This document shows, piece by piece, positions 10,335-56,618 of a stretch of 64,000 nucleotides of DNA (position 1 is its first letter; the number at the start of each line of letters is the position of its first letter). The translations under genes and the position numbers were made by a program. A model generated the notes under the pieces. The model was not told where the DNA came from and ran no database searches. It saw only the letters and a program-made list of their open reading frames with translations. Origin of the DNA: Lytechinus pictus (taxonomy: Eukaryota); contig NC_087250.1 of NCBI RefSeq assembly GCF_037042905.1, forward strand, positions 13,332,001 through 13,396,000, in the 5' to 3' direction.

Positions 10335-10376
10335 ATGGCAGAATTTCCAACCTTATATAAGATTTACAGAGGAGAT
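10335..10376 (+). CDS. ZCCHC17: ZCCHC17/pNO40 coding exon 1 (MAEFPTLYKIYRGD)
   Basis: ATG preceded by an in-frame TAA (10326-10328). Peptide resembles the S1-domain start of vertebrate ZCCHC17 (LPALYTIFQGE, recalled). GTAAGT donor, phase 0, compatible with exon 2. Confidence 0.85.
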
Positions 10377-10595
10377 GTAAGTGATTATTTATGTTTTATT
10401 TGTAAAATAAAAGTCATCATCACCGTTTTCTCTTGCCAAGATAGGTTGTAAATCATTGACGATTGACCCGCTGCCGTGTACAGACAGCAGACCCGACGGT
10501 TGCGGGGCATCTAAGCCTGGGAGCTCCGGCCCGCTTCCCGGGCCAGAGCCCAGGAGACTCGTCCGTGTATTACTTAGTAGTTAGTAGGCTACTAC

Positions 10596-11457
10596 ACCAG
10601 GCTGAAGCCAGCGCACAAACCCAGCGCACAGAATATATTGAAGCAAGCCAGCGCACAAATCCAGCGCACAGAGCTATCGCGATACAAACCGCCCTACACC
10701 GTGTGCGTAGTCTATTACTAATTAGTCGCAGACCCTAAATACAGCTTAAATTCTCAAACGTCTCGAATATTGTCATAATGCGCACGGAAATGGTATAGTA
10801 AAAAGGCATAGTTACCGGAACTTACAGATGATTGAAAATATGGAACTTCCATAATGCACTATTCCACATTATGATTGCTTCAAATATTAGTATATGACTG
10901 ATTTGTATAACATTTGAATATAATCATTAAGAATTGAATGGAGTATGTTTCTATATGGCATGAGTGCAGCTGAAAATAATACAGATAAAGAAGAATCAAA
11001 CAAAGTTGGTAAAATGTAAACAATATCGGACAAGGTTAATAGAGTTATGATATTTCAAAGATCCGCATTTCGGCCAGTTCTATATGCATTTCTTCTTTAA
11101 CATTCAATGGAGAAAAGTAATCTCTCCTGTATATTCCCACTTTTTTAATCACATGAATTCATGATTATTCAAATTTCCTCCTCCTATAGAATTACAAATA
11201 TTGTATTAAAACTATTTAATGCATTTTCTCATTAATTTATGGACATTATTTTAATAAGAGACATCACATGATTAAAAGATGATTTCATGCAAGAGCATTT
11301 TATAAGCAAAACGAAGTTGGAACACGTCATCATAAATCACTTCAAATAGATAGTTATGACTGCGTGCATTTTATTTTCACAAAATACTGCTTACTTCAAA
11401 ATTCAGTATCAGAGTTTGATGATTGCTTCCGGATTCTCTTTTGTAAATTCAACTCTT
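10596..11457 (+). repeat. Left unique TIR of the 43-kb element
   Basis: Colinear reverse complement of 53102-53932 with substitutions and indels; four subterminal CCAGCGCACA motifs at 10608-10670. Confidence 0.92.
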
Positions 11458-11468
11458 ATTAATAACTA

Positions 11469-11711
11469 TACCCAGTTGTTGTGTGTCCGGACAGGTTGTG
11501 TGTCCGGACGATCAATTTTAGAAAGTCATTTTGAAAAATTTACAAGCGATCGAAGTTTCATCAATTTTTAGTACAAAATGTTAGGAAACAATATAAAGAA
11601 CACAACAGAAGATGATAACAGCTATTGAATTCATATTTTTAGTGTAATCCAAAGACAAAAAAGAAGGCTTCAAAAATATAAAGTGTCCGGACACCCGACC
11701 TCCCATCCTAT
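11469..11711 (+). repeat. ~240-bp dispersed repeat, copy 1
   Basis: TACCCAGTTG...GTGTCCGGACGATCAATTTTAGAAAGTCATTT...GTGTCCGGACACCC...CCCATCCTAT; a second direct copy lies at 58090-58332; absent from the right arm. Confidence 0.85.
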
Positions 11712-14503
11712 CTTATTTCCAGCGCGGAGTATGCAACCATTTTATGTGTTCTGAATTTCCTATGTGTATCAATATAGTTTTTGCTTATTCCCTAAATAAA
11801 ATGCATCAGTTAATAAATTTCATATGAAAGGTCAGTCCCTCTCGCACGGGCCTTGGAACGGGGGGGGGGGGGGGGGAGACCACATTAAATTCTCAGAAAA
11901 AATTACATAACAACTTTAAAGAACTCCCTGCGTTTCGGGGCATCTTAGACGCCGTCCCCTTTTTTGTGCACCATTTAAAGTTCACCCCTAAATCGATGAA
12001 GTGATTAATGAAGATAACTCTGGTTAATTTTCATGACATAAAATGTTATTTTCGATTAGCGGCTAATTTATTACCAGCCCCCGGCCACCAAAGCGAAAAT
12101 GTTGGAATACACATACACACATAGCGCGCGCGATATTTTCGTCAACGCACCCCGACATTTCGGGGCACCCTAGACCCCGTCCCCCTTTTCTGTGCACCAA
12201 TGTTCACCCCTAGATCGATGAAGTGATTAATAAAGATCAATTTGGTTGATTTTCAAGAAATAAAATCCTGATTTCGATTAGCGGCGAATTTATTACCAGA
12301 CCAAAGCGGAATTGTTTTAATACACGTACATAATATAGCACGCCATAATAGCAAGTGCCGTATTTTCGTCAATGCACCCCCACCTTTCGGGGCATCGTAG
12401 ACCCCGTCCCCCTTTTCTGTGCACCAATGTTCACCCCTAGATCGATAAAGTGATTAATAAAGATCAATTTGGTTGATTTTCAAGAAATAAAATCCTGATT
12501 TCGATTAGCGGCGAATTTATTACCAGACCAAAGCGGAATTGTTGGAATACACGTACATAATATAGCACGCCATAATAGCAAGTGCCGTATTTTCGTCAAT
12601 GCACCCCCACCTTTCGGGGCATCGTAGACCCCGTCCCCCTTTTCTGTGCACCAATGTTCACCCCTAGATCGATGAAGTGATTGATAAAGATCAATTTGGT
12701 TGATTTTCAAGACATAAAATGGTGATTTCGATTAGCGGCGAATTTATTACCAGACCAAAGCGGAATTGTTGGAATACACGTACATAATATAGCACGCCAT
12801 AATAGCAAGTGCCGTATTTTCGTCAATGCACCCCCACCTTTCGGGGCATCGTAGACCCCGTCCCCCTTTTCTGTGCACCAATGTTCACCCCTAGATCGAT
12901 GAAGTGATTGATAAAGATCAATTTGGTTGATTTTCAAGACATAAAATGGTGATTTCGATTAGCGGCGAATTTATTACCAGACCAAAGCGGAATTGTTGGA
13001 ATACACGTACATAATATAGCACGCCATAATAGCAAGTGCCGTAGTTTCGTCAATGCACCCCCACCTTTCGGGGCATCGTAGACCCCGTCCCCCTTTTCTG
13101 TGCACCAATGTTCACCCCTAGATCGATGAAGTGATTAATAAAAATCAATTTGATTGATTTTCAGGAAATAAAATCGTGATTTCGATTAGCGGCGAATTTA
13201 TTACCAGACCAAAGCGGAATTGTTGGAATACACGTACATAATATAGCACGCCATAATAGCAAGTGCCGTATTTTCGTCAATGCATCCCCACATTTCGGGG
13301 CATCGTAGACCCCGTCCCCCTTTTCTGTGCACCAATGTTCACCCCTAGATCGATAAAGTGATTAATAAAGATCAATTTGGTTGATTTTCAAGAAATAAAA
13401 TCCTGATTTCGATTAGCGGCGAATTTATTACCAGACCAAAGCGGAATTGCTTGAATACACGTACATAATATAGCACGCCATAATATGAAGTGCCGTATTT
13501 TCGTCAATGCACCCCCACCTTTCGGGGCATCGTAGACCCCGTCCCCCTTTTCTGTGCACCAATGTTTACCCCTAGATCGATGGAGTAATTAATAAAGATC
13601 AATTTGGTTGATTTTCAAGAAATAAAATCGTGATTATGATTAGCGGCGAATTTATTACCAGACCATAGCGGAATTGTTTGAATACACGTACATAATATAG
13701 CACGCCATAATAGCAAGTGCCGTATTTTCGTCAATGCACCCCGACATTTCGGGGCATCGTATACCCCGTCCCCCTTTTCTGTGCACCAATGTTCATCCCT
13801 AGATGGATGAAGTGATTAATAAAGATCAATTTGGTTGATTTTCAAGAGATAAAATCCTGATTTCGATTAGCGGCGAATTTATTACCAGACCAAAGCGGAA
13901 TTGTTTGAATACACGTACATAATATAGCACGCCATAATAGCAAGTGCCGTATTTTCGTCAATGCACCCCCACCTTTCGGGGCATCGTAGACCCCGTCCCC
14001 CTTTTCTGTGCACCAATGTTCACCCCTAGATCGATGAAGTGATTAATAAAGATCAATTTGGCTGATTTTCAAGAAATAAAATCGTGATTTTGATTAGCGG
14101 CGAATTTATTACCAGACCAAAGCGGAATTGTTTGAATACACGTACATAATATAGCACGCCATAATAGCAAGTGCCGTATTTTCGTCAATGCACCCCCACC
14201 TTTCGGGGCATCGTAGACCCCGTCCCCCTTTTCTGTGCACCAATGTTCACCCCTAGATCGATAAAGTGATTAATAAATATCAATTTGGTTGATTTTCAAG
14301 AAATAAAATCGTGATTTCGATTAGCGGCGAATTTATTACCAGACCAAAGCGGAATTGTTTGAATACACGTACATAATATAGCACGCCATAATAGCAAGTG
14401 CCGTATTTTCGTCAATGCACCCCCATCTTTCGGTGCATCGTAGACCCCGTCCCCCTTTTCTGTGCACCAATGTTCACCCCTAGATCGATGAAGTGATTGA
14501 TAA

Positions 14504-16942
14504 TAGGAGTGGGCTATACATGGGTCAAAAATACTTTTTTTGTAATTTCAATATGACAACAGTTTTTTTTTATTCCTTGTAATGTATCTCAACATGAAAT
14601 GACAATATTTTTTGTCTCGGGTCCGAGAAAAAAGTGTGCCGGGCCAAAATCCAAAATGGCCGCCAAAACCCCCCAAAATCACAGTTTTGGCCACAACTTT
14701 TTTATTTGGTGGTCAATTTCTCTGGTTTTGGTGTCTATTCATATGTTTTGGGGGGCAGGCAATTTGTTTTTCCTATATTTAGTATTTTTAAACCATTATT
14801 TGTAGAGTTAAAAGGTAATTATACCTAAATTTTCCAATTTTTGTAGCCTTTTTTCAGCCAAAAAGTAGGTTTTATCATCCTGGGGTTCTGGGATATTAGA
14901 TGGTACGAGGTCAACAATAGCAAGCAGCTTCATATAGCTATATTGCTTTTATTCCTCCACTTTGGGTTTTACGGATATTTGTGAAATATATCTTATTAAA
15001 TAAAAAAATGTCAGTTATCCATTGGGGCTATACAGTATATACAATGTACTGTACATACATGTACATACTGCACTGCATAAATGCATTGGCCACCATGACA
15101 TATAACAAGGCTTGTATAAACTATAGTGTCATAGAAATGAGCTCTCAGGTTTAGAATTAGATGCCTCAGAAATTGAAGATATGTTTTGTCCCAGAAATTG
15201 AGGACATGTTTTGTCAAATATGCTAATTCTCGCTACCCCAAATAGCGATTTCGCCGAGATCTGGGAAAATCCCTGTAACGTGCATTGCATTATGGGATAG
15301 CTTTTTCGGTATTACAACTTCCTGTTCGGAAGTCCAATGCACTGTTTTGCCATTCAGATCAACAGTGCCGTCATGCACAACAACACAACGTCGCTTTCGC
15401 TCGGAAAGTTCGTGATCACAACCCTCTCTTTCACGATACAGTTTAACAGTTTTACAGCCTTTTCTGCTTAAGTCACTAATTCTGCCCGACGCTTTCCATT
15501 GCACGGTATTCATCTGTCAGTTAAGATTTTTTTAAGTTCCGAAACTGATTTTTATCAATTTTGTGGTCGACGAAAAATTGAACGAAATTAATGCTGTATA
15601 TATTTAGCGTCTAGTTGAATACGATCGTGATGTCAGGCCGGTCGCTAAATGCAAAATTTTAAGATATTCATTATTTGTTTGATTTTTTATAACCAAATAA
15701 AAACATGAATAAAAATTATTTTCACGTGAAATATATATTTTTTATTTTATTTATAATTCAAATGGAATCAAAACTGACCAAATGTAATAAAAAGTATTAT
15801 ACTCTGTACATATTACGCTGATTGGCATCGGTTTCAGCGTGGTGGAAAACTCAGTATCGCGAACCTCGCGCGAGCATGACTCTAAACCGGAAGTGGTGAT
15901 GACGACCCGACGGAGTGAAAATTATCTCGTCTCGCGCATTATGAGATTTTTGTTCCTATTTGGGGTAGCGAGAATTCAGGGGGCGGAGAGAGGTAATTTA
16001 CACTGTAGCTATTCTGGGCCCCGTTGCATAAAAATTTACCATTATGTTAACTTAACTTAATGGTAACTTGCATGCAATCCTTTATTCTGATTGGCTGTTG
16101 ATCAGCGTTACCATGATACTAGTAGTTATCTGACCCCATAAACATAGGCCAGTTAGACACCAGAACCAGGTTTTTAAAAAAGCCTCCAAATGAAGAAGAT
16201 ATGGCTAAAAATTTGATGTACATATATATACATGTATGTGATATTTACATGTAAGTGTAATTTATGTTGCTGGTTTCACCATGTACATCAGCTGACAAGG
16301 TATCAAATTCACAATCTAATTCTAAACCTTTGAAGCTCATTTCTATGACACTAGTTTATATACAGGCCTTGTCATATGCCATGGTGGTCAATGCATGGAT
16401 ATATGCAGTGTAGTATGTACAGTGCATTGTACACCGTATAGCCCCTATGGATAAATGACATTTTCTTTTATTTCACAAATATCCGTAAAACCCAAAGTGG
16501 AGGAATAAAAGCAATATAGCTATATGAAGCTGCTTGCTATTGTTGACCTCGTACCATCTAATATCCCAGAACCCCAGGATGATAAAACCTACTTTTTGGC
16601 TGAAAAAAGGCTACAAAAATTGGAAAATTTAGGTATAATTACCTTTTAACTCTACAAATAATGGAATAAAAGTACTAATTATAGGAAAAACAAATTGCCT
16701 GCCCCCCAAAACATATGAATAGACACCAAAACCAGAGAAATTGACCACCAAATAAAAAAGTTGTGGCCAAAACTGTGATTTTGGGGGGTTTTGGCGGCCA
16801 TTTTGGATTTTGGCCCGGCACACTTTTTTCTCGGACCCGAGACAAAAAATATTGTCATTTCATGTTGAGATAAGGTAAAAGGAACACAAAAAAACTGTTC
16901 CCACAGTAAAACCAAAAATCACCCATTTATAGCCCACTCCTA
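14504..16942. mobile_element. 2.4-kb long-TIR non-autonomous DNA element inserted in the satellite
   Basis: TAGGAGTGGGCTATA ... TATAGCCCACTCCTA; inverted arms ~14504-15162 vs ~16314-16942; TSD TTGATAA (14497-14503 and 16943-16949; boundary ambiguous, 3, 5 or 7 bp). The satellite resumes in register after it. Confidence 0.9.
15229..15972. mobile_element. MITE nested within the 2.4-kb element
   Basis: Perfect TIR CTCGCTACCCCAAATAG / CTATTTGGGGTAGCGAG flanked by AATT on both sides (a 4-bp AWWT TSD would fit Sola1; inference). Confidence 0.78.
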
Positions 16943-19900
16943 TTGATAAAGATCAATTTGGTTGATTTTCAAGAAATAAAATCGTGATTTCGATTAGCGG
17001 CGAATTTATTACCAGACCAAAGCGGAATTGTTTGAATACACGTACATATAGCACGCCATAATAGCAAGTGCCGTATTTTCGTCAATGCACCCCCACCTTT
17101 CGGGGCATCGTGACCCCGTCCCCCTTTTCTGTGCACCAATGTTCACCCCTAGATCGATGAAGTGATTAATAAAGATCAATTTGGTTGATTTTCAAGAAAT
17201 AAAATCGTGATTTCGATTAGCGGCGAATGTATTACCAGACCAAAGCGGAATTGTTTGAATACACGTACATAATATAGCACGCCATAATAGCAAGTGCCGT
17301 ATTTTCGTCAATGCACCCCCACCTTTCGGGGCATCGTAAACCCCGTCCCCCTTTTCTGTGCACCAATGTTCACCCCTAGATCGATAAAGTGATTAATAAA
17401 GATCAATTTGGTTGATTTTCAAGAAATAAAATCCTGATTTCGATTAGCGGCGAATTTATTACCAGACCAAAGCGGAATTGTTTGAATACACGTACATAAT
17501 ATAGCACGCCATAATAGCAAGTGCCGTATTTTCGTCAATGCACCCCTACCTTTCTGGGCATCGTAGACCCCGTCCCCCTTTTCTGTGCACCAATGTTCAC
17601 CCCTAGATCGATAAAGTGATTGATAAAGATCAATTTGGTTGATTTTCAAGAAATAAAATCCTGATTTCGATTAGCGGCGAATTTATTACCAGTAGACCAA
17701 AGCGGAATTGTTTGAATACACGTACATAATATAGCACGCCATAATAGCAAGTGCCGTATTTTCGTCAATGCACCCCCACCTTTCGGGGCATCGTAGACCC
17801 CGTCCCCCTTTTCTGTGCACCAATGTTCACCCCTAGATCGATGAAGTGATTGATAAAGATCAATTTGGTTGATTTTCAAGAAATAAAATCCTGATTTCGA
17901 TTAGCGGCGAATTTATTACCAGACCAAAGCGGAATTGTTTGAATACACGTACATATAGCACGCCATAATAGCAAGTGCCGTATTTTCGTCAATGCACCCC
18001 CACCTTTCGGGGCATCGTGACCCCGTCCCCCTTTTCTGTGCACCAATGTTCACCCCTAGATCGATGAAGTGATTAATAAAGATCAATTTGGTTGATTTTC
18101 AAGAAATAAAATCGTGATTTCGATTAGCGGCGAATGTATTACCAGACCAAAGCGGAATTGTTTGAATACACGTACATAATATAGCACGCCATAATAGCAA
18201 GTGCCGTATTTTCGTCAATGCACCCCCACCTTTCGGGGCATCGTAAACCCCGTCCCCCTTTTCTGTGCACCAATGTTCACCCCTAGATCGATAAAGTGAT
18301 TAATAAAGATCAATTTGGTTGATTTTCAAGAAATAAAATCCTGATTTCGATTAGCGGCGAATTTATTACCAGACCAAAGCGGAATTGTTTGAATACACGT
18401 ACATAATATAGCACGCCATAATAGCAAGTGCCGTATTTTCGTCAATGCACCCCCACCTTTCGGGGCATCGTAGACCCCGTCCCCCTTTTCTGTGCACCAA
18501 TGTTCACCCCTAGATCGATAAAGTGATTAATAAAGATCAATTTGGATGATTTTCAAGAAATAAAATCGTGATTTCGATTAGCGGCGAATTTATTACCAGA
18601 CCAAAGCGGAATTGTTGGAATACACGTACATAATATAGCACGCCATAATAGCAAGTGCCGTATTTTCGTCAATGCACCCCTACCTTTCTGGGCATCGTAG
18701 ACCCCGTCCCCCTTTTCTGTGCACCAATGTTCACCCCTAGATCGATAAAGTGATTGATAAAGATCAATTTGGTTGATTTTCAAGAAATAAAATCCTGATT
18801 TCGATTAGCGGCGAATTTATTACCAGTAGACCAAAGCGGAATTGTTTGAATACACGTACATAATATAGCACGCCATAATAGCAAGTGCCGTATTTTCGTC
18901 AATGCACCCCCACCTTTCGGGGCATCGTGACCCCGTCCCCCTTTTCTGTGCACCTATGTTCACCCCTAGATCGATGAAGTGATTAATAAAGATCAATTTG
19001 GTTGATTTTCAAGAAATAAAATCGTGATTTCGATTAGCGGCGAATGTATTACCAGACCAAAGCGGAATTGTTTGAATACACGTACATAATATAGCACGCC
19101 ATAATAGCAAGTGCCGTATTTTCGTCAATGCACCCCCACCTTTCGGGGCATCGTAAACCCCGTCCCCCTTTTCTGTGCACCAATGTTCACCCCTAGATCG
19201 ATAAAGTGATTAATAAAGATCAATTTGGATGATTTTCAAGAAATAAAATCGTGATTTCGATTAGCGGCGAATTTATTACCAGACCAAAGCGGAATTGTTG
19301 GAATACACGTACATAATATAGCACGCCATAATAGCAAGTGCCGTATTTTCGTCAATGCACCCCTACCTTTCTGGGCATCGTAGACCCCGTCCCCCTTTTC
19401 TGTGCACCAATGTTCACCCCTAGATCGATAAAGTGATTGATAAAGATCAATTTGGTTGATTTTCAAGAAATAAAATCCTGATTTCGATTAGCGGCGAATT
19501 TATTACCAGACCGAAGCGGAATTGTTTGAATACACGTACATATAGCACGCCATAATAGCAAGTGCCGTATTTTCGTCAATGCACCCCCACCTTTCGGGGC
19601 ATCGTGACCCCGTCCCCCTTTTCTGTGCACCAATGTTCACCCCTAGATCGATGAAGTGATTAATAAAGATCAATTTGGTTGATTTTCAAGAAATAAAATC
19701 GTGATTTCGATTAGCGGCGAATGTATTACCAGACCAAAGCGGAATTGTTTGAATACACGTACATAATATAGCACGCCATAATATCAAGTGCCGTATTTTC
19801 GTCAATGCACCCCCACCTTTCGGGGCATCGTAAACCCCGTCCCCCTTTTCTGTGCACCAATGTTCACCCCTAGATCGATAAAGTGATTAATAAAGATCAA

Positions 19901-43875: not shown

Positions 43876-43909
43876 CACTGAACTAGAGATACGTATCTCT
43901 AGTTCAGTG
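43876..43909. mobile_element. 34-bp perfect palindrome with 8-bp TSD; probable transposon excision footprint
   Basis: CACTGAACTAGAGATAC|GTATCTCTAGTTCAGTG flanked by ATTTTCGT (43868-43875 and 43910-43917); neighbouring monomers show the empty site. Confidence 0.85.
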
Positions 43910-44098
43910 ATTTTCGTCAATGCACCCCCACCTTTCGGGGCATCGTAGACCCCGTCCCCCTTTTCTGTGCACCAATGTTCACCCCTAGATCCATGAAGTG
44001 ATTAATAAAGATCAATTTGGTTGTTTTCAAGAAATAAAATCGTGATTTCGATTAGCGGCGAATTTATTACCAGACCAAACCGGAATTGTTGGAATACA

Positions 44099-44451
44099 AC
44101 TATTAAATTCGTCAATTGAAACAGTAAAATAGCCCTAATTTTTCCGCCACAGTAAAAAAATAGTTCCAAAGTCATTGATATATCTTCCCAATTTGGGCAA
44201 AGGAAGTTCAGTAGTTACCATTTTTAGAATCAGTGTTAGATTTTTATTGATATTCATACACTTTTGTTAATCATCAATATCATATTATAGAAAAATCGAA
44301 TGGGTTGGGTCGAACGAATATCTTTTGCATTCTTGCTGTAATTAGTCTAATGGCATCCGTAGTGCGCTTATAATCGTTCCGATGTATGAATCGCTATATA
44401 AATTGGATTACTGAATTTTAATTATTGTTACTTTTATTATTATTCTCATAG
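44099..44451. other. 353-bp unique AT-rich central spacer of the 43-kb foldback
   Basis: The left array stops at ...GGAATACA (44098) and the inverted array starts at ATTGGTGCACAG (44452). No recognisable ORF. Confidence 0.9.
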
Positions 44452-47400
44452 ATTGGTGCACAGAAAAAGGGGACGGGGTCTACGATGCCCCGAAAGGTGG
44501 GGGTGCATTGACGAACATACGGCGCCTGCTATTATGGCGTGCTATATATATTATGTACGTGTATATTCCAACAATTCCACTTTGGTCTGGTAATAAATTC
44601 GCCGCTAATCGAAATCACCATTTTATGTCTTGAAAATCAACCAAGTTGATTTTTATTAATCACTTCATCGATCTAGGGGTGAACATTGGTGCACAGAAAA
44701 GGGGTCTACGATGCCCCGAAAGGTAGGGGGTGCAAGGACGAAAATATAGCGCGTGCTATATATGTATTATATACTGTACGTGTATTCCAACAATTCCACT
44801 TTGGTCTGGTAATAAATTCGCCGCTAATCGAAATCACCATTTTATGTCTTGAAAATCAACCAAATTGATCTTCATTAATCACTACATCGATCAAGGGGTG
44901 AACATTGGTGCACAGAAAAGGGGGACGGGGTCTACGATGCCCCGAAAGGTAGGGGGTGCAAGGACGAAAATATAGCGCGTGCTATATATGTATTATATAC
45001 TGTACGTGTATTCCAACAATTCCACTTTGGTCTGGTAATAAATTCGCCGCTAATCGAAATCACCATTTTATGTCTTGAAAATCAACCAAATTGATCTTCA
45101 TTAATCACTTCATCGATCTAGGGGTGAACATTGGTGCACAGAAAAGGGGGACGGGGTCTACGATGCCCCGAAAGGTAGGGGGTGCAAGGACGAAAATATA
45201 GCGCGTGCTATATATGTATTATATACGTGTATTCCAACAATTCCACTTTGGTCTGGTAATAAATTCGCCGCTAATCGAAATCACCATTTTATGTCTTGAA
45301 AATCAACCAAATTGATCTTCATTAATCACTTCATCGATCTAGGGGTAAACATTGGTGCACAGAAAAGGGGGACGGGGTCTACGATGCCCCGAAAGGTAGG
45401 GGGTGCATTGACGAAAATACGGCGCCTGCTATTATGGCGTGCTATATATATTATGTACGTGTATATTCCAACAATTCCACTTTGGTCTGGTAATAAATTC
45501 GCCGCTAATCGAAATCACCATTTTATGTCTTGAAAATCAACCAAATTGATCTTTAATAATCACTTCATCGATCTAGGGGTAAACATTGGTGCACAGAAAA
45601 GGGGGACGGGGTCTACGATGCCCCGAAAGGTAGGGGGTGCAAGGACGAAAATATAGCGCGTGCTATATATATACGTGTATTCCAACAATTCCACTTTGGT
45701 CCGGTAATAAATTCGCCGCTAATCGAAATCACCATTTTATGTCTTGAAAATCAACCAAATTGATCTTTATTAATCACTTCATCGATCTAGGGGTGAACAT
45801 TGGTGCACAGAAAAGGGGGACGGGGTCTACGATGCCCCGAAAGGTGGGGGTGCATTGACGAAAATACGGCGCCTGCTATTATGGCGTGCTATATATATTA
45901 TGTACGTGTATATTCCAACAATTCCACTTTGGTCTGGTAATAAATTCGCCGCTAATCGAAATCACCATTTTATGTCTTGAAAATCAACCAAATTGATCTT
46001 CATTAATCACTTCATCGATCTAGGGGTGAACATTGGTGCACGGAAAAGGGGGACGGGGTCTACGATGCCCCGAAAGGTAGGGGGTGCAAGGACGAAAATA
46101 TAGCGCGTGCTATATATGTATTATATACGTGTATTCCAACAATTCCACTTTGGTCTGGTAATAAATTCGCCGCTAATCGAAATCACCATTTTATGTCTTG
46201 AAAATCAACCAAATTGATCTTCATTAATCACTTCATCGATCTAGGGGTTAACATTGGTGCACAGAAAAGGGGGACGGGGTCTACGATGCCCCGAAAGGTA
46301 GGGGGTGCAAGGACGAAAATATAGCGCGTGCTATATATGTATTATATACGTGTATTCCAACAATTCCACTTTGGTCTGGTAATAAATTCGCCGCTAATCG
46401 AAATCACCATTTTATGTCTTGAAAATCAACCAAATTGATCTTCATTAATCACTACATCGATCTAGGGGTGAACATTGGTGCACAGAAAAGGGGGACGGGG
46501 TCTACGATGCCCCGAAAGGTAGGGGGTGCAAGGACGAAAATATAGCGCGTGCTATATATGTATTATATACTGTACGTGTATTCCAACAATTCCACTTTGG
46601 TCTGGTAATAAATTCGCCGCTAATCGAAATCACCATTTTATGTCTTGAAAATCAACCAAATTGATCTTTATTAATCACTTCATCGATCTAGGGGTGAACA
46701 TTGGTGCACAGAAAAGGGGGACGGGGTCTACGATGCCCCGAAAGGTGGGGGTGCATTGACGAAAATACGGCGCCTGCTATTATGGCGTGCTATATATATT
46801 ATGTACGTGTATATTCCAACAATTCCACTTTGGTCTGGTAATAAATTCGCCGCTAATCGAAATCACCATTTTATGTCTTGAAAATCAACCAAATTGATCT
46901 TCATTAATCACTTCATCGATCTAGGGGTGAACATTGGTGCACAGAAAAGGGGGACGGGGTCTACGATGCCCCGAAAGGTAGGGGGTGCAAGGACGAAAAT
47001 ATAGCGCGTGCTATATATGTATTATATACGTGTATTCCAACAATTCCACTTTGGTCTGGTAATAAATTCGCCGCTAATCGAAATCACCATTTTATGTCTT
47101 GAAAATCAACCAAATTGATCTTCATTAATCACTACATCGATCTAGGGGTGAACATTGGTGCACAGAAAAGGGGGACGGGGTCTACGATGCCCCGAAAGGT
47201 AGGGGGTGCAAGGACGAAAATATAGCGCGTGCTATATATGTATTATATACGTGTATTCCAACAATTCCACTTTGGTCTGGTAATAAATTCGCCGCTAATC
47301 GAAATCACCATTTTATGTCTTGAAAATCAACCAAATTGATCTTCATTAATCACTTCATCGATCTAGGGGTGAACATTGGTGCACAGAAAAGGGGGACGGG

Positions 47401-50400
47401 GTCTACGATGCCCCGAAAGGTAGGGGGTGCAAGGACGAAAATATAGCGCGTGCTATATATGTATTATATACGTGTATTCCAACAATTCCACTTTGGTCTG
47501 GTAATAAATTCGCCGCTAATCGAAATCACCATTTTATGTCTTGAAAATCAACCAAATTGATCTTCATTAATCACTACATCGATCTAGGGGTGAACATTGG
47601 TGCACAGAAAAGGGGGACGGGGTCTACGATGCCCCGAAAGGTAGGGGGTGCAAGGACGAAAATATAGCGCGTGCTATATATGTATTATATACTGTACGTG
47701 TATTCCAACAATTCCACTTTGGTCTGGTAATAAATTCGCCGCTAATCGAAATCACCATTTTATGTCTTGAAAATCAACCAAATTGATCTTCAATAATCAC
47801 TTCATCGATCTAGGGGTGAACATTGGTGCACAGAAAAAAGGGACGGGGTCTACGATGCCCCGAAAGGTGGGGGTGCATTGACGAAAATACGGCGCCTGCT
47901 ATTATGGCGTGCTATATATATTATGTACGTGTATATTCCAACAATTCCACTTTGGTCTGGTAAAAATTCGCCGCTAATCGAAATCACCATTTTATGTCTT
48001 GAAAATCAACCAAATTGATCTTCATTAATCACTACATCGATCTAGGGGTGAACATTGGTGCACAGAAAAGGGGGACGGGGTCTACGATGCCCCGAAAGGT
48101 AGGGGGTGCAAGGACGAAAATATAGCGCGTGCTATATATGTATTATATACGTGTATTCCAACAATTCCACTTTGGTCTGGTAATAAATTCGCCGCTAATC
48201 GAAATCACCATTTTATGTCTTGAAAATCAACCAAATTGATCTTCATTAATCACTTCATCGATCTAGGGGTAAACATTGGTGCACAGAAAAAGGGGACGGG
48301 GTCTACGATGCCCCGAAAGGTGGGGGTGCATTGACGAAAATACGGCGCCTGCTATTATGGCGTGCTATATATATTATGTACGTGTATATTCCAACAATTC
48401 CACTTTGGTCTGGTAATAAATTCGCCGCTAATCGAAATCACCATTTTATGTCTTGAAAATCGACCAAATTGATCTTCATTAATCACTTCATCGATCTAGG
48501 GGTAAACATTGGTGCACAGAAAAGGGGGACGGGGTCTACGATGCCCCGAAAGGTAGGGGGTGCAAGGACGAAAATATAGCGCGTGCTATATATATACGTG
48601 TATTCCAACAATTCCACTTTGGTCTGGTAATAAATTCGCCGCTAATCGAAATCACCATTTTATGTCTTGAAAATCAACCAAATTGATCTTTATTAATCAC
48701 TTCATCGATCTAGGGGTGAACATTGGTGCACAGAAAAAGGGGACGGGGTCTACGATGCCCCGAAAGGTGGGGGTGCATTGACGAAAATACGGCGCCTGCT
48801 ATTATGGCGTGCTATATATATTATGTACGTGTATATTCCAACAATTCCACTTTGGTCTGGTAATAAATTCGCCGCTAATCGAAATCACCATTTTATGTCT
48901 TGAAAATCAACCAAATTGATCTTCATTAATCACTTCATCGATCTAGGGGTGAACATTGGTGCACAGAAAAGGGGGACGGGGTCTACGATGCCCCGAAAGG
49001 TAGGGGGTGCAAGGACGAAAATATAGCGCGTGCTATATATGTATTATATACTGTACGTGTATTCCAACAATTCCACTTTGGTCTGGTAATAAATTCGCCG
49101 CTAATCGAAATCACCATTTTATGTCTTGAAAATCAACCAAATTGATCTATATTAATCACTTCATCGATCTAGGGGTGAATATTGGTGCACAGAAAAAGGG
49201 GACGGGGTCTACGATGCCCCGAAAGGTGGGGGTGCATTGACGAAAATACGGCGCCTGCTATTATGGCGTGCTATATATATTATGTACGTGTATATTCCAA
49301 CAATTCCACTTTGGTCTGGTAATAAATTCGCCGCTAATCGAAATCACCATTTTATGTCTTGAAAATCAACCAAATTGATCTTCATTAATCACTTTATCGA
49401 TCTAGGGGTGAACATTGGTGCACAGAAAAGGGGGACGGGGTCTACGATGCCCCGAAAGGTAGGGGGTGCAAGGACGAAAATATAGCGCGTGCTATATATG
49501 TATTATATACGTGTATTCCAACAATTCCACTTTGGTCTGGTAATAAATTCGCCGCTAATCGAAATCACCATTTTATGTCTTGAAAATCAACCAAATTGAT
49601 CTTTATTAATCACTTCATCGATCTAGGGGTGAACATTGGTGCACAGAAAAATGGGACGGGGTCTACGATGCCCCGAAAGGTGGGGGTGCATTGACGAAAA
49701 TACGGCGCCTGCTATTATGGCGTGCTATATATATTATGTACGTGTATATTCCAACAATTCCACTTTGGTCTGGTAATAAATTCGCCGCTAATCGAAATCA
49801 CCATTTTATGTCTTGAAAATCAACCAAATTGATCTTTATTAATCACTTCATCGATCTAGGGGTGAACATTGGTGCACAGAAAAGGGGGACGGGGTCTACG
49901 ATGCCCCGAAAGGTAGGGGGTGCAAGGACGAAAATATAGCGCGTGCTATATATGTATTATATACTGTACGTGTATTCCAACAATTCCACTTTGGTCTGGT
50001 AATAAATTCGCCGCTAATCGAAATCACCATTTTATGTCTTGAAAATCAACCAAATTGATCTTTATTAATCACTTCATCGATCTAGGGGTGAACATTGGTG
50101 CACAGAAAAAGGGGACGGGGTCTACGATGCCCCGAAAGGTGGGGGTGCATTGACGAAAATACGGCGCCTGCTATTATGGCGTGCTATATATATTATGTAC
50201 GTGTATATTCCAACAATTCCACTTTGGTCTGGTAATAAATTCGCCGCTAATCGAAATCACCATTTTATGTCTTGAAAATCAACCAAATTGATCTTCATTA
50301 ATCACTTCATCGATCTAGGGGTGAACATTGGTGCACAGAAAAAGGGGACGGGGTCTACGATGCCCCGAAAGGTGGGGGTGCATTGACGAAAATACGGCGC

Positions 50401-52870
50401 CTGCTATTATGGCGTGCTATATATATTATGTACGTGTATATTCCAACAATTCCACTTTGGTCTGGTAATAAATTCGCCGCTAATCGAAATCACCATTTTA
50501 TGTCTTGAAAATCAACCAAATTGATCTTCATTAATCACTTCATCGATCTAGGGGTGAACATTGGTGCACAGAAAAGGAGGACGGGGTCTACGATGCCCCG
50601 AAAGGTAGGGGGTGCAAGGACGAAAATATAGCGCGTGCTATATATGTATTATATACTGTACGTGTATTCCAACAATTCCACTTTGGTCTGGTAATAAATT
50701 CGCCGCTAATCGAAATCACCATTTTATGTCTTGAAAATCAACCAAATTGATCTTCATTAATCACTTCATCGATCTAGGGGTGAACATTGGTGCACAGAAA
50801 AGGGGGACGGGGTCTACGATGCCCCGAAAGGTAGGGGGTGCAAGGACGAAAATATAGCGCGTGCTATATATGTATTATATACGTGTATTCCAACAATTCC
50901 ACTTTGGTCTGGTAATAAATTCGCCGCTAATCGAAATCACCATTTTATGTCTTGAAAATCAACCAAATTGATCTTCATTAATCACTTCATCGATCTATAT
51001 AGGGGTAAACATTGGTGCACAGAAAAGGAGGACGGGGTCTACGATGCCCCGAAAGGTAGGGGGTGCAAGGACGAAAATATAGCGCGTGCTATATATGTAT
51101 TATATACTGTACGTGTATTCCAACAATTCCACTTTGGTCTGGTAATAAATTCGCCGCTAATCGAAATCACCATTTTATGTCTTGAAAATCAACCAAATTG
51201 ATCTTCATTAATCACTACATCGATCTAGGGGTGAACATTGGTGCACAGAAAAGGGGGACGGGGTCTACGATGCCCCGAAAGGTAGGGGGTGCAAGGACGA
51301 AAATATAGCGCGTGCTATATATGTATTATATACTGTACGTGTATTCCAACAATTCCACTTTGGTCTGGTAATAAATTCGCCGCTAATCGAAATCACCATT
51401 TTATGTCTTGAAAATCAACCAAATTGATCTTCATTAATCACTTCATCGATCTAGGGGTGAACATTGGTGCACAGAAAAGGGGGACGGGGTCTACGATGCC
51501 CCGAAAGGTAGGGGGTGCAAGGACGAAAATATAGCGCGTGCTATATATGTATTATATACGTGTATTCCAACAATTCCACTTTGGTCTGGTAATAAATTCG
51601 CCGCTAATCGAAATCACCATTTTATGTCTTGAAAATCAACCAAATTGATCTTCATTAATCACTTCATCGATCTAGGGGTAAACATTGGTGCACAGAAAAG
51701 GGGGACGGGGTCTACGATGCCCCGAAAGGTAGGGGGTGCATTGACGAAAATACGGCGCCTGCTATTATGGCGTGCTATATATATTATGTACGTGTATATT
51801 CCAACAATTCCACTTTGGTCTGGTAATAAATTCGCCGCTAATCGAAATCACCATTTTATGTCTTGAAAATCAACCAAATTGATCTTCATTAATCACTTCA
51901 TCGATCTAGGGGTAAACATTGGTGCACAGAAAAGGGGGACGGGGTCTACGATGCCCCGAAAGGTAGGGGGTGCAAGGACGAAAATATAGCGCGTGCTATA
52001 TATATACGTGTATTCCAACAATTCCACTTTGGTCTGGTAATAAATTCGCCGCTAATCGAAATCACCATTTTATGTCTTGAAAATCAACCAAATTGATCTT
52101 TATTAATCACTTCATCGATCTAGGGGTAAACATTGGAGCACAGAAAAATGGGACGGGGTCTACGATGCCCCGAAAGGTGGGGGTGCATTGACGAAAATAC
52201 GGCGCCTGCTATTATGGCGTGCTATATATATTATGTACGTGTATATTCCAACAATTCCACTTTGGTCTGGTAATAAATTCGCCGCTAATCGAAATCACCA
52301 TTTTATGTCTTGAAAATCAACCAAATTGATCTTTATTAATCACTTCATCGATCTAGGGGTGAACATTGGTGCACAGAAAAGGGGGACGGGGTCTACGATG
52401 CCCCGAAAGGTAGGGGGTGCAAGGACGAAAATATAGCGCGTGCTATATATGTATTATATACTGTACGTGTATTCCAACAATTCCACTTTGGTCTGGTAAT
52501 AAATTCGCCGCTAATCGAAATCACCATTTTATGTCTTGAAAATCAACCAAATTGATCTTCATTAATAACTTCATCGATCTAGGGGTGAACATTGGTGCAC
52601 AGAAAAGGGGGACGGGGTCTACGATGCCCCGAAAGGTGGAGGTGCATTGACGAAAATACGGCACTTGCTATTATGGCGTGCTATATTATGTACGTGTATT
52701 CCAACAATTCCGCTTTGGTCTGGTAGTAAATTCGCCGCTAATCGAAATCACGATTTTATGTCTTGAAAATCAACCAAATTGATCTTTAATAATCACTTAA
52801 TCGATCTAGGGGTGAACATTGGTGCACAGAAAAGGGGGACGGGGTCTACGATGCCCCGAAATGCAGGGGG
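44452..52870 (-). repeat. Satellite array, right arm (~37 monomers; variants of 214/221/226/233 bp), inverted relative to the left array
   Basis: Reverse complement of the left monomer with arm-specific variants (CCATTTTATGTCTTG, TTCCACTTTGG, GCAAGGACGAAAATATAGCGCGTG). Confidence 0.98.
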
Positions 52871-53101
52871 TGTAATTTTTATTGAGAATTTGATATAGAT
52901 ATTAATGTCTTCATGAATATTCATTAGGTGGGCTGATGATATCATATCGGTTATCCCCACTCGTTCTTTTGTATTTTATTATATGATTTTCTACCACTTT
53001 ATTTTTACCTGGGACTAAAACAGTTGGAACTGATTCATTACTTCAGTTATTTGTTGTTGCAACTTCTTTCATCATAATACTAATAGAGACATCATTTACA
53101 A

Positions 53102-53932
53102 AAGAGTCAAATTTACAAAAGAGAATTTTGAGGTCAGCAGTATTTTGTGAAAATAAAATGCACGCAGTCATGACTATCCATTTGAAGTTATCATGATGTC
53201 GTGTTCCAACTTTCGTTTCGCTTATAAAATGTTCTTACATGAAGTCGTTTTTTAAATCATGTAATGTCTCTTATATTAAAATAATATCCATGAATTAATG
53301 AACAAATGCATTAAATTTTGTTTGATACAATATTTTTTATTCTAGGGGGAGGAAATTTGAATATTCATAAATTCATATGATTCAAAAAGATGGAATATAC
53401 AGGAGAGATTACTTTTCTCCAATGAATGTTAAAGAAGAAATTTAAGGCATATAGAACTGGCCGAAATGCGGATCTTTAGAATATCATAACTCTGTTATCC
53501 TTGTCCGATTTTGTTTACATTTTACCAAATTTGTTTGATTCTTCTTGATCTCAATTACTTTCAGCTGCATTCATGCCATGTCATATAGAAACATACTTCC
53601 TTTAATTCTTAATATATTCAAATGTTATACAAATCAGTCATATACTAATATTTGAAGCAATCATATTGTGGAATAGTGCATTATTAAAATTCCATATTAT
53701 CAGCCATCTGTAAGTTTGGATAACTATGCCTTTTATCTGCATACCATTTTCGTGCGCATTATGACAATCTTCGAGACGTTTGAATTTAAGCTGTATTTAG
53801 GGTCTGCAACTATTAGACTATGCATACGGTGTAGGGCGGTTTGTATCGCGATAGCTCTGTGCGCTGGATTTGTGCGCTGGCTTGCTTCAATATATTCTGT
53901 GCGCTGGGTTTGTGCGCTGGCTTCAGCCTGGT
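53102..53932 (-). repeat. Right unique TIR of the 43-kb element
   Basis: Reverse complement of 10596-11457, including four TGTGCGCTGG motifs. Confidence 0.92.
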
Positions 53933-54031
53933 GGCTACTACTACTAGGCAGTCGTCAGACATCACCCATGTCATGGTAACCCACTCATTCAATAAACAAG
54001 GTTATGATATAACCTTGTTCTCAGTTATATC

Positions 54032-54651
54032 CATAGGCGGATCCAGCTTTTGGCGAAAGGGGGGGCGCACTGCCGAGCGGCGCACATATTTTTGCACTTC
54101 ACCGGCGCCATAAAAGAAAATGTTGAAAAAGGGGTAAAGTCTGACCCTGTCAAATGCTCTTTTCAAAATGTAGGATTTCCAGTCATGCCATTTTGCATGA
54201 CCACACGCAGATAATATTTCCGGGGGGGGGGGGGGGGGGCAAGACTAGCCAGGCGGCTTCTAGAGAGTAAAAATTATTTACTAACGTAAGGTCACTCTCA
54301 GTACGAAGCCAGGGCCTCAGTCATACACTTTTGCATGTACCACCAAAAAACCTGAAACTTTCGCCCCCGAGATTTCTACTTTCTTTCTAAAAGATCTAGC
54401 CCTAAATCATGTACATGGGATACAACTTCATTTCCGACATTTCTATGCTATGGATTTTATTTTTAGACAAGAATTCATTAAAAAAAATGAGAAAAATATC
54501 ATGAATAGACGGAAGAGACTTGCCCGATGTTTACGCCGCCATCTTGTTTTCTATTGTTCTTCCCCAACGTTACGCGACGCAAGCGTCCGTACCTCTCAAA
54601 TATTAGGGGGGGGCGCGCGCCCCCTGCGCCACCCCCCTGGATCCGCCACTG
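54032..54651. mobile_element. hAT-like MITE with poly-G/C subtermini
   Basis: TIRs CATAGGCGGATCCAG / CTGGATCCGCCACTG; the flanking direct repeat is only ATATC (5 bp). Confidence 0.72.
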
Positions 54652-55371
54652 ATATCTCCATGTGTGGCAAAATAAGGATGGCAATGTTTGGCTTATTTTA
54701 TCTTTTTCTTTGGGACAAATGCTTGATTTTTTTACACTGACAGTTTCCATCACACCTATTCGTCATACAACTTGGCCGGCTTAAGTAAATTTGATTCTTT
54801 AAATTATTTTTTTCTTAATTAAAAATAAAAATAGAGATAAAAAAATGAAAATTTTCTTGCCATATTATTTTCCACCAATAGAGGGCATACACAAAAATAT
54901 GCCCAAAATTCAAGTATTTGAGTGCTCTAGTGAATACAAAAATTATTCCCAAGTTACTTATGAAAAATAAATTGCAACTGTATGGAAATTAGTAATTTTG
55001 GTCACAAAATTGATATTTTAATGATTTTTTAAAGTGTGTGCTCTGTACAGCATTGGCATGCCATAGTCTAGACAGGAATAACCGTCATTTCTGGGGATTT
55101 ATTCAACAATTTCTGACATTTTACTATAATCCCCATGAGTGAGCCAACGCAGTTCAGCGGAACAACCAAAATACAGAGACTGAAGCTTTTGGTCTAGCCA
55201 TAGTCCTACCTGTAGGCTGTAGTGTAGTACAGGCAGGGTGATTGCTGTGAACAAGTGTGGTAACCCAGCCCCAGGGAGCTCCGGCCCGCGAAGTGGGCCG
55301 GAGCCCAGGCCAGGAGCTCATCGTGCATTTACTCATACTCACGGGACTAGCAGGGACTAGGGTAGATTGTG

Positions 55372-56497
55372 GTCACAATAACTTGGAAAGAAAAATGTGA
55401 AAACAGAAATTATTTGGATTGAACTTTTTGAAGGTCTATATGGTGTGGTACCTCGTCAGGCGATGTTCGTGCAGGCTCTACTTCACTACCGCTCCACCTA
55501 CCCGAACATCGGGACCGTGAACCATTTCGGATATACCGAGTCACGAAGGTGGGATGGAAATCATGTTTATCGTAAAAATTAAACAAAAAAATATAACGAA
55601 TAAGAATTATGATGATTGACTTAATATCTTACTCTACACCCGTATTTCACTCCGTTTCCGTCCTCCGGTTATCCTCAAAATTTGTGATTTTGGGCCAGTA
55701 TCAAATTCCTCACACGTATTATTCACGGCCGATTACAAAACGCGTATCGAGTGGACCTTCCTAATATAATAATAGCAACACTGATATGTGTTGCTGCCCT
55801 CTACGTTTGTTGCATACAATGTTTTGAAATCGGCCGTGAATAATACGTGTGAGGAATTTGATACTGGCCCAAAATCACCAATTTTGAGGATAACCGGAGG
55901 ATGGAAACGGAGTGAGATACGGGTGTAGAGTAAGATATTAAGTCAATCATCTTTTTCGTTATATTTTTTTTGTTTAATTTTTATGATAAACATGATTTCC
56001 ATCCCACCTTTGTGACTCTGTATATCTGAAATGGTTCACGGTCCCGATGTTCGGGTAGGTGGAGCGGAGTGTAGCGGTAGTGAAGTGGAGTGGAGCCTGC
56101 ACGAACATCGCCTGAGATAATCGTGTGGCAGCATCCTGACATCGAGGCATAGCCACAGACTGGAACCTCAAAAAAACGAAAAGTTCTGTCGCGATACCTC
56201 TCCTTTCAAAATTCAAAACAAAATGGCCGATCCAGACCGAGGCTATAGCACTAGTTAGCGCATGTAGACTTGGTCAAAAAATTTGTGCATGCGCCCTACA
56301 CCCTCTGTACCGGTCTCGATCGGCCATTTTGCTATGAATTCTGAAAGAAGCGCTACCGCGACAGAACTTTTCGTTTTTTTGAGGTTCCAGTCTGTGCCTC
56401 GATTTCAGGACACTGCCACACGATAGACCTTCATCCATATAATCGTGGTAAGTGCATAATTTCTGTTTTCACAATTTTCTTTCCAAGTTATTGTGAC
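55372..56497. mobile_element. Palindromic MITE carrying a nested second palindromic MITE
   Basis: GTCACAATAACTTGGAAAGAAAA..GTGAAAACAGAAATTA vs its reverse complement at 56457-56497; inner arms ~56120-56240 vs ~56311-56425. Confidence 0.78.
55456..56115. mobile_element. Nested palindromic MITE (~285-bp arms)
   Basis: TCAGGCGATGTTCGTGCAGGCTC ... GAGCCTGCACGAACATCGCCTGA; arms ~55456-55741 vs ~55821-56115 (seen as mirror ORFs 55397+ and 55974-). Confidence 0.85.
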
Positions 56498-56618
56498 TGC
56501 AAATATTGCAAAAATCGCTCCATTGTACGGCGATTCTAATGACAATGTACTTGACTTTTCTATGATTAAACCTAATTCAAATACCAGTACCTTTTTCTTT
56601 GTTTTACTCCTTATATAG

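Follow-up and report, generated by a model that had tools for sequence, protein, structure and literature searches.

TU and FB elements are the classical foldback transposons, with long modular terminal inverted repeats (TIRs) that contain tandem repeats. Their tandem units measure tens of base pairs, the whole elements a few kilobases, and the target-site duplications (TSDs) of FB are 9 bp long. TU occurs in echinoids, and the sea-urchin TU elements were reportedly described by Liebermann et al. in 1983, a study cited in PMC4079207. The 43-kb element treated here can be likened to TU and FB by structure alone, through the foldback plan, the tandem-repeat TIRs and the presence in an echinoid. 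A second element in the window (the whole stretch of 64,000 nucleotides of Lytechinus pictus DNA that was analysed), 10.4 kb long and with repeats of 62-78 bp, is closer to them than the 43-kb element is. Outside the older TU-element papers, a literature search returned neither a foldback element of sea urchins whose arms consist of satellite nor a 227-bp echinoid satellite of this kind.

A more elaborate plan is that of Tetris, a foldback transposon of Drosophila virilis (Dias et al. 2014, PMC4079207). According to that paper, Tetris has long TIRs with an outer flanking domain of up to 866 bp (~810 bp here). Inward of it lie ~220-bp tandem repeats (227 bp here), whose number varies, then an inner segment and lastly a non-coding middle domain. 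The paper also gives TSDs of 8-10 bp (9 bp here), reports that no transposase was found, and describes repeats that were amplified into satellite arrays. It puts the TIRs of complete Tetris copies at up to 1.7 kb, whereas the sea-urchin elements carry 5-30 kb of satellite per arm. The present element also differs in that its host is a deuterostome, its left (L) and right (R) flanking domains are ~11% apart, and this copy lies inside a conserved gene. The likeness concerns the structural plan, and no sequence relationship is expected.

Other systems resemble the locus at the level of RNA. Mu killer of maize has been proposed to form a ~4-kb hairpin via read-through from a flanking gene, and the likeness lies in an inverted transposon duplication, a multi-kilobase hairpin RNA and siRNA proposed to act against the family (PMC3440606). 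Mu killer is reported to be a rearranged derivative, and experiments have addressed its hairpin and silencing effect, whereas here every copy is intrinsically a hairpin, and this one is intronic and read from sequence. Caenorhabditis elegans EERs (PMC5859968) and Drosophila hpRNAs (PMC10317233) are likewise long intramolecular dsRNAs arising from inverted repeats in Pol II transcripts. Known examples measure 0.1-2 kb and are defined by small RNAs or editing, whereas the arms considered here (8.4 + 0.8 kb) are predicted from the DNA.

The insert in intron 1 of ZCCHC17 is a DNA transposon of the foldback type, non-autonomous and 43.3 kb long, which occupies positions 10597-53933 (43,337 bp; Table 1). 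The 227-bp satellite makes up 87.5% of the element, in two convergent arrays separated by a 0.36-kb spacer. An alignment of the TIRs (10595-11404 and 53933-53123) over 827 columns shows 88.5% identity, and the chance of a 9/9 match at both flanks is ~4e-6. A transposon with TIRs and a TSD had been proposed here in an earlier sequence-only reading, and the ~810-bp TIRs and exact 9-bp duplication bear this out. The same reading had put the end of the element ~2.7 kb upstream of the exon 2 acceptor (2,685 bp as measured) and the intron without the element and one TSD at 2,896 bp, a figure that was reproduced exactly. It had also placed the start 219 bp past the exon 1 donor; as a small correction, the first base of the element is nucleotide 220 of the intron, not 219. 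Within one monomer, the 34-bp palindrome is a remnant of a TIR-only transposon.

Table 1. Features of the 43.3-kb element, its host gene and its upstream neighbour, in order along the window
Feature	Positions	Strand	Details
Second, unrelated foldback-like element	1..10282		starts 122 bp before the window; TIRs of 62-78-bp tandem repeats
ZCCHC17 exon 1	10335..10376	+	ATG, MAEFPTLYKIYRGD; donor GTAAGT at 10377; 10/15 identical to N-terminus of the S. purpuratus orthologue (P0001)
ZCCHC17 intron 1	10377..56618	+	46,242 bp
Left target-site duplication, 9 bp	10588..10596		GGCTACTAC
Left TIR, "L type"	10597..11404	+	begins ACCAGGCTGAAGCC; four subterminal CCAGCGCACA repeats
Unique inner segment "uniqL"	11405..11925	+	common to other copies at 94-98%; 81-88% in C20 and C21
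227-bp satellite, first block	11933..14503	+	11.3 copies
Nested TIR element, 2,438 bp	14504..16941		arms 14521-14988 and 16469-16936, 94%; TTGATAA flanks
227-bp satellite, main block	16942..43877	+	118.6 copies; mean pairwise identity 97.3%; lengths cycle 226/227/230/224
Perfect palindrome, 34 bp, within monomer	43876..43909		flanked by 8-bp ATTTTCGT repeats
Non-satellite spacer, predicted hairpin loop	44090..44451		homologous spacer in 5/7 other copies (C2, C3, C7, C20, C21)
Satellite array, opposite orientation	44452..52872	-	37.2 copies; monomers 214-234 bp, 91% alike, 87% to left monomers
Unique inner segment "uniqR"	52873..53122	+	common to C18, C3, C1, C21 and C13
Right TIR, "R type"	53123..53933	-	88.5% complementary to left TIR; 98.9% identical to C18 R-type TIR
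Right target-site duplication, 9 bp	53934..53942		GGCTACTAC
ZCCHC17 exon 2	56619..56676	+	19/20 to P0001 (tblastn)
ZCCHC17 exon 3, S1 domain	57929..58032	+	34/35 to P0001 (tblastn)
ZCCHC17 exon 4	61488..61576	+	tblastn match to P0001
ZCCHC17 exon 5, start of CCHC knuckle	62499..62599	+	tblastn match; later exons beyond the window

By homology, the gene that hosts the element in this Lytechinus-like sea urchin is the orthologue of ZCCHC17 (pNO40). With the S. purpuratus orthologue as query, tblastn returned matches to all five exons in the window, in order; the exon 1 match (10/15, E=0.076) is weak by itself. Echinoid proteins align with the window exons at 95-100% identity, and the homologues, which bear PF00575, go by the names nucleolar protein of 40 kDa or ZCCHC17. 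The CCHC zinc knuckle opens with CKKCGTVG in exon 5 and extends past the window. Only one copy of the gene is present in the 812-Mb assembly. Exons 1-5 add up to 394 nt, or 131 codons with 0 stops, and introns 1-4 (46,242, 1,252, 3,455 and 922 bp) all run from GT to AG. The named orthologues, the S1 domain with the CCHC knuckle and the five exon matches thus agree with the gene name given in the earlier reading, and its description of five in-frame exons with GT-AG sites holds.

On the evidence of genome matches, the element is one member of a family of ~20 foldback elements, whose copies are numbered here with the prefix C. The first 150 bp of the TIR gave 40 genome matches among 43 candidates, and the whole TIR gave at least 44, with 40 of 84 candidates scored. 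A common plan was found in all eight full copies examined, including the one in the window, on seven contigs: TIR, unique segment, satellite(+), middle, satellite(-), unique segment and TIR. The spacer sequence is common to six of these eight (the window copy, C2, C3, C7, C20 and C21), and the ~11% difference between L and R flanking domains is found throughout the family. Exact 9-bp TSDs were present in 11 of 13 terminus pairs (the window copy, C18 and nine of ten further pairs), each at a different target; C2 has an 8/9 match offset by one base, and the flanks of C10 gave no TSD match. Satellite per arm varies from 5 to 30 kb between copies, which suggests that at least some array growth takes place after insertion. 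The "inverted satellite" that had been described at ZCCHC17 is therefore real as regards its opposed arrays, but it is not peculiar to this gene. Because opposed arrays are the normal architecture of the family, any effect would be family-wide rather than specific to ZCCHC17.

The element contains no open reading frame (ORF) of 110 aa or more. The middle domains of other copies measure 1-4.9 kb, with a longest ORF of 143 aa in the six domains scanned. Among ten middle-domain ORFs, the sole Pfam match (PF24515) is noise, at 17.6 bits against a cut-off of 26.4. TIR searches and the ORF and Pfam scans of middle domains found no transposase. All 40 terminal matches are giant or truncated non-coding copies, and an autonomous partner with the same termini and a MULE-type DDE transposase was not found among them; an autonomous partner with diverged termini may exist. 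The foldback (FB-like) assignment is based on very long modular TIRs with tandem repeats opposed in two arms, TSDs around the whole element at many independent sites, and a short or non-coding middle, which in the window copy is the 0.36-kb spacer. The 9-bp TSD falls within the 8-11 bp of Mutator/MULE elements. Merlin TSDs are 8-9 bp, and TSD length alone is compatible with Merlin as well.

The predicted potential of the element to form a hairpin is very strong in silico. Folding of the central 1.5 kb gave a single long hairpin with a minimum free energy of -803 kcal/mol. When 37 monomer pairs were set in a centre-out register (8,583 columns), 87.0% of columns were Watson-Crick pairs, 1.7% G:U, 6.8% mismatches and 4.5% gaps, with 132 uninterrupted helices of at least 21 bp, the longest of 99 bp. 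The predicted cofold of the two TIRs reached -1135.8 kcal/mol versus -326.4 kcal/mol apart, and a shuffled partner gained only -8.4 kcal/mol; in this cofold 745 of 808 bases are paired. A thermodynamic capacity for ~9 kb of imperfect duplex, as suggested earlier, is thus confirmed by calculation, with 0.81 kb of TIR (88.5%) and 8.42 kb of right array (87% plus 1.7% G:U).

The reading that we favour, with somewhat better than even confidence, is that the ZCCHC17 pre-mRNA crosses the 43.3-kb foldback in intron 1 of this single-copy gene, is able to fold there, and can have the intron removed as a unit. Pol II starting at exon 1 would have to traverse the entire element. The emerging right array could pair progressively with the neighbouring left monomers, starting at the centre, over ~8.4 kb at 87% Watson-Crick pairing, and the TIRs would then close the base of the hairpin, while ~21 kb of left array would stay single-stranded. 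The left array would be transcribed many minutes ahead of its partner, and by that time it may be coated or have folded locally. Folding would draw together the flanks of the intron (220 nt and 2.7 kb), and intron 1 would then most likely be spliced out as a unit. dsRNA helicases, ADAR or Dicer would be able to act on the duplex; the genome encodes four loci with A_deamin (ADAR-type) domains and one with a Dicer_dimer domain. We infer that such a dsRNA substrate would be a by-product of the family architecture, with no implication that it was selected for a role in ZCCHC17.

RNA and DNA reads from runs X21, X24, X7 and X2 were mapped to positions 52400-64000 of the window at 90% likeness, a range that includes ~1.3 kb of the element. 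None of the runs is evidently from the assembled individual, their reads are 5-8% off the window sequence, and dispersed repeats dominate the output. In this repeat-dominated mapping, exon junctions accounted for none of the 15 joints listed (933 more were present), and none of the 24 loose ends listed (6,267 more) lay at 56619. Satellite RNA reads in X21 were few and of a single polarity (depth 5.57 vs 0), and could come from any of the ~20 copies. Mismatches over the mapped range, with ~1.3 kb of element covered, were symmetric, A>G versus T>C being 94 vs 106 in X21 and 98 vs 100 in X24, with no excess of A>G in this range.

An unlikely alternative, which nevertheless has several observations in its favour, is that this is a young, probably polymorphic insertion allele that is hypomorphic or silent. 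Heterochromatin or premature termination at the arms would then preclude a full-length hairpin RNA, and the exons would be intact solely for lack of time to decay. The left TIR is 98.5-98.8% identical to the TIRs of C2 and C18 and 99% identical to that of C25; because of this high identity between copies, we infer, on the favoured reading as on this one, that the insertion is evolutionarily young. The arrays contain 248 AATAAA hexamers on the sense strand, 213 in the left array (7.2 per kb) and 35 in the right, compared with 2.3 per kb for AATAAA plus ATTAAA in introns 2-4, and these hexamers, which also speak against the favoured reading, could provide early transcript ends. Between two transposons, exon 1 is left with an interval of 314 bp (10283-10596), and the right terminus of the upstream element, for which no TSD was recognisable, lies 53 bp upstream of the ATG, so that the ZCCHC17 promoter may be displaced or transposon-derived. 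Exon 1 nevertheless retains its ATG, its frame and a consensus GTAAGT donor. The very low read depth over the exon 5 bin (0.36/1.92 in X21, 2.9/3.1 in X24) would fit a silent allele, and, as the gene is single-copy, its function could be supplied by a second, empty haplotype. However, the assembly yielded neither an empty-site allele nor a haplotig of that kind: the stretch of 211 bp adjoining the insertion (10386-10596) had no second match among the 40 of 366 candidates scored. On the left, repeat-derived positions 1-185 of the query explain 39 of the 40 other matches, and on the right the other matches are unrelated repeats at positions 42-98. Large repeat-filled introns are also commonly transcribed, which counts against silencing.

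It is improbable that transcription bypasses exon 1 and the element altogether, starting instead at an alternative first exon or promoter that lies between the element and exon 2 (53943-56618) or within a repeat. This idea draws on the only Lytechinus model retrieved, the L. pictus protein P0002 (XP_054757211.1, 799 aa), which is without the MAEFP exon (exon 1) and has 323 reverse-transcriptase-like residues fused straight to the opening of exon 2, VASIQPYG. However, the reverse-transcriptase part had no window match at E<1 by tblastn, and such fusions are typical prediction artefacts near giant introns. The S. purpuratus model opens with the exon 1 peptide; the echinoid entries retrieved were those of S. 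purpuratus and L. pictus, both singleton clusters. The sole ORF above 110 aa in 53943-56618 has no Pfam match. A joint between 54026 and 54652 was rejected as a splice, since it also occurs in DNA contigs and is thus a repeat variant. For annotators this is a warning, as the giant intron, together with a second transposon that ends 53 bp short of the start codon, may be the reason for the missing exon 1 in P0002.

Although satellites and long inverted repeats are well known to provoke misassembly, it is most improbable that the opposed arrays arose in assembly, through a chimeric fold-back long read or by collapse of an array, given the recurrence of the TIR-SAT(+)-middle-SAT(-)-TIR order in 8/8 copies on seven contigs, the spacer in 6/8, and the intact 9-bp TSDs around whole elements in 11/13 pairs.

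The favoured reading, a foldable pre-mRNA that crosses the element, has consequences at several levels. Foldback elements of 20-50 kb that consist almost entirely of satellite DNA are documented here with exact target duplications. This bears on how satellites become scattered along chromosome arms, either as arrays that move as cargo or as arrays seeded by an element and grown in place. The locus also provides a natural experiment in how a gene transcribed by Pol II deals with an intron able to form ~9 kb of dsRNA. Its single-copy status, and junctions found in this copy alone (those of the nested insertion and the borders of the spacer), permit locus-specific assays. If the allele is silent, it would represent a young insertion polymorphism that disables a conserved gene. 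If the RNA is made and processed, the locus would offer an animal equivalent of Mu killer in maize; RdDM, a plant pathway, is, to our knowledge, absent from animals. A more speculative and rather doubtful extension is that each family member is a self-contained "killer" hairpin. Read-through in hosts such as ZCCHC17 would then produce satellite and TIR dsRNA that is diced or feeds piRNAs, silencing the family and dispersed 227-bp arrays in trans, with a housekeeping gene as the standing trigger. If this were true, a housekeeping gene would tame a transposon that moves tens of kilobases of satellite DNA.

The plus-strand gene in the window is, judged from protein comparisons, the orthologue of ZCCHC17/pNO40. 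A 46-aa query around exon 3 matched three proteins, namely the S. purpuratus orthologue XP_011666385.1 (P0001), a public gene model of L. pictus (P0002, XP_054757211.1), and an Acanthaster homologue (P0003) named 'nucleolar protein of 40 kDa-like'. Residues 1-150 of P0001, used as a wider query, gave 573 matches (E<=1e-10), of which the animal ones contain PF00575 and bear the name pNO40 or ZCCHC17. P0001 also matched all five exons in order (tblastn); the exon 1 match (10/15 residues, E=0.076) is weak alone and is accompanied by the ATG and the GTAAGT donor. ZCCHC17 is single-copy in the 812-Mb assembly, with later exons just past the window end. The sequence-only reading had described five exons in frame with GT-AG sites, and this was confirmed: the exons comprise 394 nt, or 131 codons, with no stops, and every intron is GT..AG. 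Its figure of 2,896 bp for intron 1 (46,242 bp) after subtraction of the 43,337-bp foldback element and one target duplication was likewise reproduced.

Features of the window around ZCCHC17 and its intron 1 element
Feature	Position in window	Orientation	Remarks
Second foldback-like element, ~10.4 kb	1-10282		Unrelated to the 43,337-bp element; left terminus 122 bp before window; right terminus ...GTGCCTACCC
ZCCHC17 exon 1	10335-10376	+	ATG, GTAAGT donor
Element TIRs	10595-11404 / 53933-53123	inverted	88.5% identity, 827 columns
Target duplication	directly outside both element ends		GGCTACTAC
227-bp satellite, left blocks	11933-14503 and 16942-43877		
Nested TIR element	14504-16941		2,438 bp, in left satellite array; arms ~470 bp, 94%; termini TAGGAGTGGGCTATA...; flanks TTGATAA
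Perfect palindrome	43876-43909		34 bp, inside satellite monomer; two abutting 17-bp TIRs
227-bp satellite, right array	44452-52872	opposite to left blocks	
ZCCHC17 exon 2	56619-56676	+	
ZCCHC17 exon 3	57929-58032	+	
ZCCHC17 exon 4	61488-61576	+	
ZCCHC17 exon 5	62499-62599	+	

Both the satellite and the TIR were found again elsewhere in the genome. With the initial 150 bp of the TIR as query, 40 of 43 candidates matched; these matches pair into approximately 20 elements with ends 7.5-115 kb apart. When the parts of the window's element were mapped onto seven other full copies, all eight copies showed the same order: TIR, unique segment, satellite(+), middle, satellite(-), unique segment, and TIR. 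Two types of unique segment occur, a 520-bp uniqL and a 250-bp uniqR, and arm length varies from ~4 to 30 kb. A ninth copy, on C13, is short, with truncated TIRs and a single array. Most pairs combine a TIR that shares 93-99% identity with the left TIR of the window and one that shares 86-89%; the 88.5% identity between the window's own TIRs is therefore a trait of a family with two TIR types and is uninformative on age. Exact 9-bp duplications, different in sequence at each site, adjoin ACCAGG...CCTGGT in 11 of 13 pairs (the window, C18, and 9 of 10 further pairs). The duplication of the C2 copy matches at 8/9 positions with a one-base offset, and the flanking 9 bp of the C10 copy do not match.

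The middle domains are of two types with a common 950-bp core, and those of the C3 and C7 copies are bracketed by inverted copies of a spacer. In the window copy, a single spacer (44090-44451) remains and the middle domain is missing, which makes this copy a deletion derivative. The window's element has no ORF of at least 110 aa. Across six middle domains, the longest ORF is 143 aa, and a Pfam scan of 10 middle-domain ORFs gave no credible match; the sole match, PF24515 at 17.6 bits, was rejected because it fell under the 26.4-bit cut-off. The family is one of non-autonomous foldback transposons. The 9-bp duplication points to Mutator/Foldback, a superfamily assignment that would need a transposase to be fixed. 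The satellite and TIR bins (52400-52786 and 53561-53947) have values of only 9.9 and 0 in the organism A DNA contigs (X2), versus 10^4-10^5 for other repeats. The same bins reach 71 and 19.9 in organism B (contig set X7) and are also covered by RNA reads of run X21. This difference suggests that the element family is restricted to one lineage.

Satellite monomers were delimited at a conserved anchor, and gaps were scored as differences. Left block 1 yielded 11 monomers, left block 2 yielded 117 of 118 intervals, and the right array yielded 37; the dropped interval (269 bp) contains the 34-bp palindrome and one of its 8-bp flanking repeats. Mean pairwise identity is 97.3% in the main left block and 91.1% in the right array, and left and right monomers share 87.0% on average (range 82.0-96.5%). 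Left monomers follow a four-monomer length cycle of 226/227/230/224, and right monomers of 214, 221, 226, and 233 bp form a ~447-bp higher-order pattern. By these identity and length patterns, each arm was homogenised on its own, and neither arm mirrors the other. The palindrome, which has 8-bp direct repeats ATTTTCGT on both sides (43868-43875 and 43910-43917), looks like a hAT-like element shrunk to both ends. The junctions of the nested element occur in no other copy and are usable for locus-specific assays.

It had been proposed that the pre-mRNA could fold into a kilobase-scale imperfect duplex, and modelling bears out this thermodynamic capacity. Arm pairing, computed monomer by monomer from the centre outwards over 8,583 columns, gave 87.0% Watson-Crick pairs, 1.7% G:U, 6.8% mismatches, and 4.5% gaps, with 132 uninterrupted helices of at least 21 bp (4.3 kb in total, longest 99 bp). 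The TIRs cofold at -1135.8 kcal/mol, compared with -326.4 when the two are folded separately; intermolecular pairs take up 745 of 808 bases, and with a shuffled partner the gain was only -8.4. For the central 1.5 kb, a single long hairpin is predicted (raw MFE -803 kcal/mol). Long dsRNA would thus be the thermodynamically expected outcome if one transcript includes both arms. In the genome, four loci encode A_deamin domains and one locus encodes a Dicer_dimer domain. The likeliest reading, which we consider probable, is a young foldback insertion tolerated by ZCCHC17, in which read-through of the element would generate hairpin RNA as an unavoidable by-product.

A rather unlikely alternative is that the insertion allele is young and either silent or hypomorphic, and the surroundings of exon 1 are relevant here. 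In the second, upstream element, 7-1240 pairs with 10157-8878 (85.8%), and the arms consist of tandemly repeated 62-78-bp units (at 440-2228, and in inverted orientation at 7888-9801). Its last part, 10100-10282, is the terminus of an abundant TIR family (366 candidate matches genome-wide), often found in inverted pairs 9-19 kb apart; no recognisable TSD was found at the window copy. The terminus at 10282, the arm pairing, and the left end outside the window indicate that this element stops 53 bp before the ZCCHC17 ATG. Exon 1 thus lies on a 314-bp island (10283-10596) with a transposon on each side, and the promoter either lies within the terminus of the upstream element or has been displaced by 10 kb. 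The arrays contain 248 sense-strand AATAAA hexamers (213 left, 7.2 per kb; 35 right), compared with 2.3 per kb in introns 2-4 for AATAAA and ATTAAA together; the presence of a hexamer by itself predicts polyadenylation poorly.

That the gene uses a first exon further downstream is more doubtful still. P0002 ('cylicin-1-like', 799 aa) lacks the exon 1 peptide and has a 323-residue RT-like (PF00078) segment that runs straight into the first residue of exon 2. The RT part has no match in the window; the fusion may reflect misprediction around a giant intron or a genuine alternative 5' exon of L. pictus. A misassembly is highly improbable.

Raw reads of two RNA runs and two sets of contigs, none evidently from the assembled individual, were mapped to 52400-64000 at 90% likeness. 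The mapped reads were swamped by dispersed repeats; under these conditions, no exon junction was present among the 15 joints listed, from a set with 933 others, and A>G and T>C differences were balanced. Depth in the exon 5 bin was 0.36/1.92 in X21 and 2.9/3.1 in the other RNA run, X24. First mates of X21 covered the satellite bin at 5.57 on the plus strand and 0 on the minus strand, from few reads that could derive from any copy. A 625-bp segment (54026-54652) was skipped in all four runs, DNA included, and was rejected as an intron; it is an insertion/deletion variant within a dispersed repeat. Another dispersed repeat, in intron 3 (60140-61300), is probably an expressed SINE-like family, with very high RNA depth and strong strand bias in the rRNA-depleted X21 (up to 1,681 vs 173). 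At 60411, 60889, and 60992, all four runs had the same loose-end consensus sequences.

The domain plan of the family matches that of Tetris in D. virilis, described in PMC4079207 as a flanking domain that reaches 866 bp, followed by ~220-bp tandem repeats, then an inner domain and a non-coding middle, with duplications of 8-10 bp. That text also cites older sea-urchin foldback elements; our literature search turned up no account of satellite-armed foldback families in sea urchins. A role of ZCCHC17 read-through in supplying small RNAs against the element family would have parallels in the Mu killer proposal (PMC3440606), intronic dsRNA regions of C. elegans (PMC5859968), and helicase targeting of hairpin transcripts (PMC4710571), and is itself unlikely. 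Tandem-repeat arms in foldback elements, satellites that derive from such elements, and read-through hairpin RNA are already known. The window's element therefore joins a known kind as a new member of unusual size, sited in a conserved gene, for which the RNA consequence is attractive but predicted.
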